From the NCBI RefSeq assembly GCF_000026545.1, contig NC_011601.1: 64,000 nucleotides of DNA. One strand, given 5' to 3'. Positions within the stretch are counted from its first letter, which is position 1. Each line of letters opens with the position of its first letter. This stretch comes from Escherichia coli O127:H6 str. E2348/69 (GTDB taxonomy: Bacteria; Pseudomonadota; Gammaproteobacteria; Enterobacterales; Enterobacteriaceae). Shown here in pieces: positions 6,001 through 9,000 of the stretch. Made by a program: the position numbers.

Positions 6001-9000
6001 AAATGATATAAATTATGTGAGATAACGTTTATCTATCAAATTAGGACACATCTATTTCATCAAACAACCACCTTAAAATGTTATTATTCTCTGTTTTCTA
6101 ATGTGTAAAATACATTATCATTAAATGTCAACAAAAAAAATCATATATTTTTAAAATCCATTTAAAATCAATGATATAGAAGAAAACCATCTCGTTAACA
6201 AACGACTTTAATAATTGCATTTCCATTTAGTTAAGCGTTTCTCTTTATAAGATAGATCTCATTGCATAAACAAATAAAACAGAATAAAAACCAAGCTGAA
6301 CCGTTTCACTATACTCTACTTAATTCGAGTTACAGGAAGGCGGCAAGCGAGTGAATCCCCAGGAGCTTACATAAGTAAGTGATTGGGGTAAGCGAACGCA
6401 GTCGCAGCACATGCAACTTGAAGTATGACGAGTATATATATCTATTAGCTGTCTCCCGGACATAAGCTACAGCCAGCACTAACCTGGAACGGGTGCATTA
6501 TAAAAAGGAACAAGGGACAAATAGCTGAACAAGTAACCGCGTTAGTCTCTTCCCGCATAACCGTACCATTCGTATTAAGAAGTATTGCCCATATCCATTC
6601 GGCGAAAGAGGATCTGCCATACATCAAGTCCGTTTTACTTGGCATCAGATCATCGCCGTCATTAACTCTGTTAAAGTCGGACAAACGATTAGCAAGATCT
6701 GTGATTCAAAAGTGCATAGCGCTAAGGTGGGACTGGTTACAAATTCATTAACCCTGTTCTTTGTCGCACCTATCGATCGGTGTAATGCCACAACAGGTTT
6801 ATGTTAATCAGAACAATGCGCCCCTCTATAAAGAGAATTCTTTGATAAGGCAACTTGAAAAGGGAAAGCTAACTGATATCAATGTACCACTTTAGTAATC
6901 ATCACATTATATACAGGCCAAAATAAGTTTCCTGAAAGCCAGTATCTCTAAATCAATCATTAATGGTATATTTTATCGTCACAATAAAAAATTATCTAAA
7001 TTCTATTACTTATGTAAATAAGTACAACCTTTTCATAGACACAAAAACTATGGCTGACGCATCACTTGCAATCAATTATCCATCATTAGATTAATATTTT
7101 CACTTATTTTTCAGAAGGTAAAAATAACTTTCTATGCGTTTAAAACACCCGCTATAAATATCTTGTATATTATTGACACTATATGATGCTATATGATACT
7201 TGTTGCCAAATTGTTCATTACAAACCAGATAGGAGAATCTCTCATGATAAATGGACTTAATAATGACTCCGCATCTTTAGTTTTAGATGCTGCAATGAAA
7301 GTTAATTCTGGGTTTAAAAAAAGCTGGGATGAGATGTCATGCGCTGAAAAGTTACTTAAAGTACTTAGTTTTGGTTTATGGAATCCAACGTACAGTCGTA
7401 GTGAAAGACAATCATTTCAAGAGTTGTTAACCGTTTTAGAGCCTGTATATCCACTTCCCAATGAATTAGGCAGAGTATCTGCTCGTTTTTCAGATGGCTC
7501 ATCCTTAAGAATTTCCGTCACTAACAGCGAAAGTATTGAAGCCGAGATTCGCACACCAGATAATGAAAAGATTACTGTGCTCCTGGAGTCAAACGAACAA
7601 AATAGGTTATTACAATCTTTACCCATCGATCGCCACATGCCATACATTCAGGTTCATCGTGCCTTATCTGAGATGGACCTGACTGATACTACCTCAATGC
7701 GCAATCTACTTGGTTTTACGTCAAAACTATCAACAACCTTGATTCCTCATAATGCTCAAACAGATCCGCTTTCCGGGCCTACACCATTCAGCTCTATCTT
7801 TATGGATACATGTCGAGGACTCGGCAATGCAAAGCTTTCACTCAATGGTGTTGATATACCTGCAAATGCACAAATGTTGCTTCGCGATGCACTAGGACTT
7901 AAAGACACACACTCATCACCTTCCCGGAATGTTATAGATCATGGTATTTCTCGCCATGATGCAGAGCAAATAGCAAGAGAAAGCAGCGGCAGCGATAATC
8001 AGAAAGCTGAAGTTGTGGAATTTTTATGCCATCCAGAAGCAGCAACGGCCATATGCTCGGCTTTCTATCAATCTTTCAATGTGCCAGCCTTAACGTTGAC
8101 ACATGAAAGGATCTCTAAAGCCAGTGAATACAATGCGGAAAGATCGTTAGATACACCTAACGCTTGCATTAACATCAGTATCTCTCAATCATCAGATGGA
8201 AACATTTATGTTACCAGCCATACCGGGGTTCTGATAATGGCGCCAGAAGACCGCCCCAACGAGATGGGCATGTTGACGAACAGGACTTCTTATGAAGTGC
8301 CGCAAGGTGTGAAATGTACAATCGATGAAATGGTAAGAGCGCTACAACCAAGGTATGCCGCATCTGAAACGTACTTACAAAACACTTAAAATAAAACTTT
8401 ATTAATCAAAACCAATAATAGAAATCACACCCACAATTATTAACAATTTATCCTGAAGTTAATTACAATCAAACAAAAATATTTGTTCTGCAAACAATTT
8501 ACAGTAAATAGAGAAAATGAAAAGAAAACCATTAATTGCATTTTTCATTGCGATATTTATTATGCTAACCATATTAATATTATTTCCATTTAATTGTACT
8601 TACAAAAAATCACCTCAAGAACACTCACTTTCATTTATAAAACAATTACCAAATACGGTGAACTTATCATCTCTTACTTATAATAAAGAGGATGATTTCC
8701 TGTATGCCACCCAGAATAGCCCTGCACAGCTACTTAAAATAACCAAAAGTGGCGACATCATGGACAGAGCCCCGCTGCCTTTTATCTCTGATGCTGAAAC
8801 AATTGAACACATACAAGGGAACATTTTTGCTGCAGTAGACGAAAAGACTTCTGAACTATTCTTTTTTACAGTTACAAAAGATATGCATATCTCCTTTCGA
8901 AATAAAATTCAGTTAGAAAAATTCAATAAAAAGAATAGAGGGTTTGAAGGGCTGGCATGGAAAGCAGATGATCGGATGCTGTTTGTCGCAAAAGAAAGAC

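Follow-up and report, generated by a model that had tools for sequence, protein, structure and literature searches.

The DNA analyzed here is a 64,000-bp window from Escherichia coli O127:H6 str. E2348/69 (contig NC_011601.1) that represents the enterocyte effacement locus (LEE) of this enteropathogenic strain, and the feature in question is a G+C-richer patch at positions 6310–6860, located in the spacer between the genes ler and espG. This patch is very probably a graveyard of small mobile elements and not a functional gene or RNA. It is a mosaic of four pieces, namely a complete enterobacterial repetitive intergenic consensus (ERIC) element at 6310–6436, a LEE-specific spacer at 6437–6539, the internally deleted fossil of an IS3-family insertion sequence (IS) at 6540–6741, and further LEE-specific DNA at 6742–6860. 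An earlier note on the sequence had suspected that the segment is composite or was inserted and that it might be what is left of something decayed, and this part of its reading was borne out by the inserted ERIC, the gutted IS, and the two short LEE-specific stretches.

The spacer matched E2348/69 at 100% and is bounded by ler (5552–5923, minus strand) and espG (7244–8389, plus strand), with no RefSeq feature annotated in between. Since ler ends at 5923 and espG starts at 7244, its length is 1,320 bp and not the 1.25 kb given before. The G+C content amounted to 43.2% at 6310–6860, compared to 26.2% at 5924–6309 and 29.0% at 6861–7243, and a 100-bp sliding profile remained at 0.40–0.47 over approximately 6300–6850 and at 0.20–0.30 on each side. 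The segment compositions give a two-proportion z of ~5.9, and the G+C shift can therefore be regarded as real. Hence, the spacer is indeed not uniformly AT-rich, as the earlier note had stated, and a G+C-balanced tract does follow the ERIC; it extends over ~420 bp (6437–6860), however, and not ~350 bp.

An ERIC between rorf2/espG and ler was reportedly noted already by Elliott and colleagues in the original LEE sequence paper of 1998. The element consists of a 123-bp body (6312–6434) with a TA on each side (6310–6311 and 6435–6436) and thus spans 127 bp; the 44-bp core at 6351–6394 that had been recognized before is real, but it belongs to this full-length element and does not stand alone. With 6310–6440 as a query, matches were obtained in 5,425 of 5,426 complete E. 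coli genomes, at 91–95% identity and a median of 6 places per genome. The element folds as a long imperfect hairpin of −47.1 kcal/mol (shuffled sequences: −27.95 ± 3.48; z = −5.5), and its match in Rfam was the ERIC-like Vibrio family V_AS5 (E = 1.2e-5, below the gathering score). With regards to length, terminal inverted repeats, hairpin, and TA flanks, as well as multi-copy intergenic spread and presence/absence polymorphism between related genomes, it agrees with the ~127-bp MITEs (miniature inverted-repeat transposable elements) of the Enterobacteriaceae known as ERIC elements (Hulton et al. 1991; reviewed in PMC3184786), and without any substantive difference it is a typical full-length copy. 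TA flanks at both ends have been described for ERIC-type MITEs (PMC3184786).

Alignment of different LEE loci revealed a cleanly empty insertion site in O103/O111 strains, in E. albertii, and in an E. coli strain from a Swiss dog. While E2348/69 reads …GTTTCAC-TA-[123 bp]-TA-TATATC…, O103 reads …GTTCCGC-TA-TATAGC… in the pairwise alignment. Without the insertion, the site has the form …C TA TATAGC… in O103 as well as in E. albertii and the dog strain. A junction-spanning query found the site filled in 456 complete E. coli genomes, O157:H7 included, and a query for the empty site found it unoccupied in 240, of which 234 were of the O26/O103/O111 type and 6 of a third, E. albertii-like type. The ERIC is a lineage-specific insertion present in the E2348/69-type and O157:H7-type LEE. 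An extended ERIC variant, which had been proposed as one explanation for the whole segment, does not agree with these data: the genome-wide ERIC homology ends at 6440, and the empty site lacks only the 125-bp unit 6312–6436. Nor is the patch unchanged in all LEE variants: the ERIC varies in its presence, and the remainder occurs in all of them but has diverged by 15–25%. In the LEE of Escherichia sp. MOD1-EC7003, the ERIC is present with its central ~70 bp deleted.

The second mobile element was identified by nucleotide homology to both ends of an IS. A sensitive BLASTN search of 6441–6900 against the complete E. coli genomes returned, beyond the LEE itself, only matches of 6551–6698 to genes annotated as 'IS3 family transposase', with 72–75% identity. 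At these annotated loci, the matching part begins with the IS left end and continues through the leader into the first part of orfA in plus-strand orientation, and local alignments to reference IS copies yielded 114/156 and 115/156 identities (E = 9e-23 to 4e-24). A second, collinear match connects 6708–6741 with the last 34 bp of the IS copy in strain UTI89, where 25 of 34 positions are identical and the alignment ends exactly at …TTACA. None of 5,000 shuffled sequences scored as well as this right-end match for E2348/69, the same was true for O103 (0/5,000), and at most 9 did so for E. albertii. Taken over a model composed of the two IS ends, 150 of 197 aligned positions of the fossil are identical (76%). 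The reference orfA product (MRKARFTEHQIIAVIKSVEAGRTV…) belongs to PF01527, HTH_Tnp_1 (3e-28), and presumably resembles the IS407/IS2 group; an intact reference element with a programmed frameshift is found in E. coli TH9F11 (WP_085967267.1).

The remaining 202 bp, all on the plus strand, can be read as a shortened but ordered IS. The left terminus and the 5′ leader occupy 6540–6608, the former start codon at 6609–6611 now reads ATA, and ~31 codons of an orfA of the HTH_Tnp_1 type continue to ~6702; after a deletion junction at 6703–6707, the last ~35 bp of the element follow at 6708–6741 and close with the right terminus …GGTTACA. The orfB of such elements, which is entered through a −1 frameshift and encodes the DDE (rve) catalytic domain, is absent; only ~35 bp of the 3′ end of the IS are left, and the sequence was therefore filed as a fossil and not as an element. 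Two other assignments were considered and rejected. A C-terminal part of orfB on the minus strand disagrees with the annotated loci, at which the match corresponds to the left end of the IS together with plus-strand orfA, and one contiguous stretch of orfA fails past ~6702, where the 3′ terminus of the IS matches far better.

The reference copies carry a dodecamer within orfA (GGCCGGAATCTC) and again just before the 3′ end (GGCCGGGATCTC), and the E. albertii-type fossil keeps the sequence of both sides of the junction at this dodecamer repeat. From the repeat pair and this junction we infer an internal deletion between direct repeats, probably by recombination between the 12-bp copies of GGCCGGRATCTC. 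The same gutted element with the same junction was found in three types of LEE, namely that of E2348/69 and O157, that of O103/O111, and that of E. albertii and the dog strain, and the fossil therefore predates the divergence of these three lineages. Its identity between E2348/69 and O103 is 85.5%, compared to 74–91% for the rest of the spacer and 87–90% for third codon positions of ler and espG; judged by these comparisons, the decay looks neutral. The base substitutions in the fossil display no AT-ward trend (16 GC→AT versus 17 AT→GC).

For comparison with related systems, the copy beside clbA in the pks island of UTI89 and Nissle and the TH9F11 element are the closest references. Left end, leader, ribosome-binding region, and the first ~31 orfA codons are collinear with 73–75% nucleotide identity, and the last ~35 bp of the fossil end in the family-typical …CA terminus, whereas ~1 kb of the interior, the start codon, an intact left terminus, and a target duplication are missing. 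The architecture of two termini around a short remnant of an internal deletion is shared with IS-derived MITEs. Unlike those, no second copy with this deletion was found in the 5,426 E. coli genomes, where matches outside the LEE are confined to the orfA portion of ordinary IS copies, and the fossil is therefore a single dead copy and not a member of a mobile family.

The two remaining pieces are LEE-specific, as neither 6437–6539 nor 6742–6860 matched anything outside the LEE in the BLASTN search of complete E. coli genomes, and 6437–6545 and 6742–6960 had no match among plasmids. The first stretch is homologous in all LEE lineages examined and is 74% identical between E2348/69 and O103. It harbors two AAGGAAC-type heptamers at 6505–6518, which also occur in 2 copies in O103 and have expanded to 20.3 perfect copies in the O111:H2 strain 12A, making this a variable-number repeat in the ler–espG spacer. 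Furthermore, the E2348/69 and O157 lineage carries a 22-bp deletion at 6459/6460, and the corresponding sequence (ATATACCTCAACCCCCTATTCC in O103) was kept in the O103, E. albertii-type, and MOD1-EC7003 spacers. The second stretch has a G+C content of 38.7% and is 79% identical between E2348/69 and O103, with indels of 3, 7, and 11 bp; in the E. albertii-type lineage it is largely deleted. This lineage has lost ~100 bp downstream of the fossil and, within it, 16 bp covering the ribosome-binding region and the start.

Taken together, the following course of events would account for the patch. An IS3-family element with ~48% G+C in its intact form would have inserted between espG and the regulatory region of LEE1 before the known LEE lineages of the espG–ler type split. 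It would then have lost ~1 kb of its interior through the direct repeats; what is left is the 202-bp shell at 6540–6741, which has an ATA in place of its start codon and no coding capacity. Later, in the ancestry of the E2348/69-type and O157:H7-type LEE, the 123-bp ERIC would have inserted at a TA located 104 bp closer to ler, immediately beside a Cra-type operator. The ERIC, the fossil, and ~220 bp of LEE-specific sequence together raise the G+C content to 43% in a spacer that otherwise stays at 26–29%. The ERIC is a known repeat and the IS3-family fossil, previously unannotated, is a conventional one, so that the patch as a whole is ordinary.

A small protein gene was considered as an alternative, since an open reading frame (ORF) does exist at 6445–6684 on the minus strand, as the earlier note had listed. 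Its inner 59 codons (6445–6624) correspond to E2348C_3969 (CAS11517.1, UniRef100_B7UMC7), a 59-aa 'predicted protein' of the original E2348/69 annotation, and the full frame would encode up to 79 aa. This entry has been dropped from the current RefSeq annotation, the ORF runs antisense through the IS fossil, and it was described before as lacking a ribosome-binding site. None of the ORFs or frame fragments of the patch had a match in Pfam. Moreover, the frame is broken by two 1-bp indels and a 22-bp indel in O103, is likewise destroyed in O111, and is interrupted in the E. albertii type, where 16 bp have been deleted. The earlier judgement that the tract contains no convincing ORF thus holds, the ORF at 6445–6684 is a chance ORF, and we give a genuine small protein gene next to no chance. 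Outside the patch, in the AT-rich part of the spacer, several draft genomes of enterohemorrhagic E. coli (EHEC) list a 43-aa ORF at 6963–7091 (plus strand) as a partial 'hypothetical protein'; this ORF is probably spurious.

A structured non-coding RNA or small RNA (sRNA) gene in 6440–6860, which had also been suggested, would fit a region that is non-coding, conserved across LEE lineages, and G+C-richer than its surroundings. Folding of 6442–6860 did not exceed that of shuffled sequences on either strand (z = −0.37 for plus and +1.01 for minus), and an Rfam covariance scan of 5500–7600 (E ≤ 10) returned only the ERIC-like V_AS5 match below the gathering threshold. Five sequences that represent three lineages yielded only a weak consensus structure (−25.8 kcal/mol over 480 columns; covariation term −1.08), and indels of 16–100 bp separate the lineages. 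The promoter and terminator scan found 7 promoter-like sites versus 7.3 expected, none of them in 6300–6900, and no terminator-like sites. By these predictions, a structured RNA appears largely refuted and is very improbable. Regulatory RNAs of the LEE are known from elsewhere, such as sRNA350 in the 3′ untranslated region (UTR) of cesF and the cis-encoded Arl, which represses ler (PMC5030294); sRNA350 was rejected as a candidate for the patch because of its position in the cesF 3′ UTR.

Several points weigh against the reading of the patch as a graveyard of dead elements and need to be considered. The left terminus of the fossil reads CGTTAGTC… and not TGTAAGTA… as in the reference, that is CG for TG, while the right terminus …GGTTACA was kept. 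At the flanks AACCG|…|AATTC, no target-site duplication of 3–4 bp was found, which is to be expected for a fossil so decayed. The translated fossil had no match in Pfam, and its assignment to the IS3 family therefore relies on nucleotide homology. Approximately 220 bp of the patch (6437–6539 and 6742–6860) are accounted for by neither the ERIC nor the fossil, and between E2348/69 and O103 the fossil is slightly better conserved than its immediate neighbors (74% and 79%). The patch appears functionally inert except for providing ~550 bp of non-AT-rich spacing between two divergent promoters, and this inertness is itself read from sequence features. Finally, the ERIC adjoins a probable Cra operator inside a ler regulatory fragment that has been used experimentally, and a regulatory side effect may result from this position.

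The operator consensus of Cra/FruR is RSTGAAWCSNTHHW. An exact match, AGTGAAACGGTTCA, is located just outside the patch at 6297–6310 on the minus strand and represents the sole exact match in the 64-kb window, where 0.47 would be expected by chance. This putative operator ends with the T of the TA at which the ERIC inserted. All ERIC-bearing loci contain the exact-consensus box, whereas the loci of O103, O111:H2, E. albertii, and the dog strain lack it; the region reads TAAGACGTTCCGCT in the O103 type versus TGAACCGTTTCACT in the E2348/69 type. Published positions at the ler promoter, such as −393 and −255, are presumably counted from the proximal promoter, whose start we take from earlier EHEC mapping to lie ~30 bp upstream of the ler ATG. 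By our own coordinate conversion, the candidate box would then be found at about −345 and position −393 inside the ERIC. Njoroge et al. described binding of Cra to the EHEC ler promoter between −393 and −255 by electrophoretic mobility shift assay and footprinting, and used a −393 to +86 ler-lacZ fusion for Cra-dependent regulation (PMC3482499). The candidate box would thus fall within the footprinted interval.

With these data, co-opted cis-regulatory DNA has to be weighed as a further alternative, in which the ERIC and/or the G+C-richer fossil would have a role in the control of LEE1 or espG. Such a role could, for example, consist of a boundary that stops H-NS/Ler filaments between the AT-rich promoter regions, or of a changed spatial arrangement upstream of the Cra operator, in which case regulation would differ between LEE lineages with and without the ERIC. 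In favor of this are the position of the ERIC next to the only Cra-consensus site of the window, the location of this putative site in the interval bound by Cra in EHEC (PMC3482499), the co-occurrence of the exact box and the ERIC by lineage, the retention of the patch in every espG–ler-type LEE examined, and the marginally better conservation of the fossil. However, conservation does not exceed that of synonymous sites, many indels separate the lineages, including the ~100 bp lost in the E. albertii type, and new IS insertions in the patch are tolerated by some strains. In addition, the Cra-responsive ler-lacZ fusion begins, by our conversion, inside the ERIC and hence works without the fossil (PMC3482499). 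We regard co-option as unlikely on balance. A more specific version, in which the ERIC against the ler Cra operator and the fossil behind it would rewire distal LEE1 control, either through Cra–KdpE looping or through the limits of H-NS/Ler spreading towards espG, seems quite unlikely; if true, sugar- or silencing-dependent regulation of ler would differ between ERIC-bearing LEE and the ERIC-free LEE of O26/O103/O111 and E. albertii. An influence of the ERIC or the patch on the distal control of ler thus has a small probability, and no sequence feature requires it. The effect of ERIC elements on mRNA stability requires co-transcription (PMC3184786). As the ERIC lies upstream of both neighboring promoters as they are currently mapped, those of LEE1 on one side and, at a distance of ~800 bp from the gene, that of espG on the other, this known effect would not be expected here.

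The graveyard reading also agrees with the history of the surrounding junction. In O111:NM 14614 and assembly GCA_054485645.1, an IS2-like end (TGGATTTGCCCCTATATTTCCAGACAC…) adjoins position 6767, 26 bp past the fossil, and is followed by an IS3-family pseudogene and IS1203; espG has lost its adjacent position there. In Escherichia sp. MOD1-EC7003, the fossil itself is interrupted at ~6577, where another IS3-family element begins. At C. rodentium-type loci, espG-rorf1 is situated beside the LEE4/espF end and homology to the window begins only at 6955; upstream of this point, three tandem ~42-bp repeats (…ACTATAGGGCAGGATCGTCTACCGGGGCGGGGTCAGTCC…) and apparent transposase/IS debris are found. 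The Salmonella-type LEE does not contain espG-rorf1 (PMC3408504). In Logan assemblies it shares only ~6097–6229 of the spacer, with tir-cesT-eae divergent from ler, a tir–ler spacer that holds neither ERIC nor fossil, and a Ler that is 64% identical. A scan with Ler for other loci gave only E. albertii and one Escherichia sp., and further look-ups led to E2348/69-like contigs. These insertions and the differing placement of espG-rorf1 put the patch at a repeatedly rearranged junction, which is consistent with, but no proof of, an IS-mediated joining of the espG-rorf1 module to LEE1.

These results explain a patch of odd composition in a much-studied bacterial regulatory region, remove the spurious ORF E2348C_3969, and argue strongly against a hidden RNA gene. 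The filled or empty state of the ERIC site, the shared IS fossil, and the AAGGAAC repeat provide markers for LEE lineages. The espG–ler junction has repeatedly received IS3-family elements, in agreement with the LEE of C. rodentium and Salmonella, where espG-rorf1 is placed differently or is missing. When ler promoter constructs are compared across pathotypes, it should be considered that a 125-bp insertion distinguishes the sequences upstream of the putative Cra site and that only ERIC-bearing lineages have the exact-consensus box.

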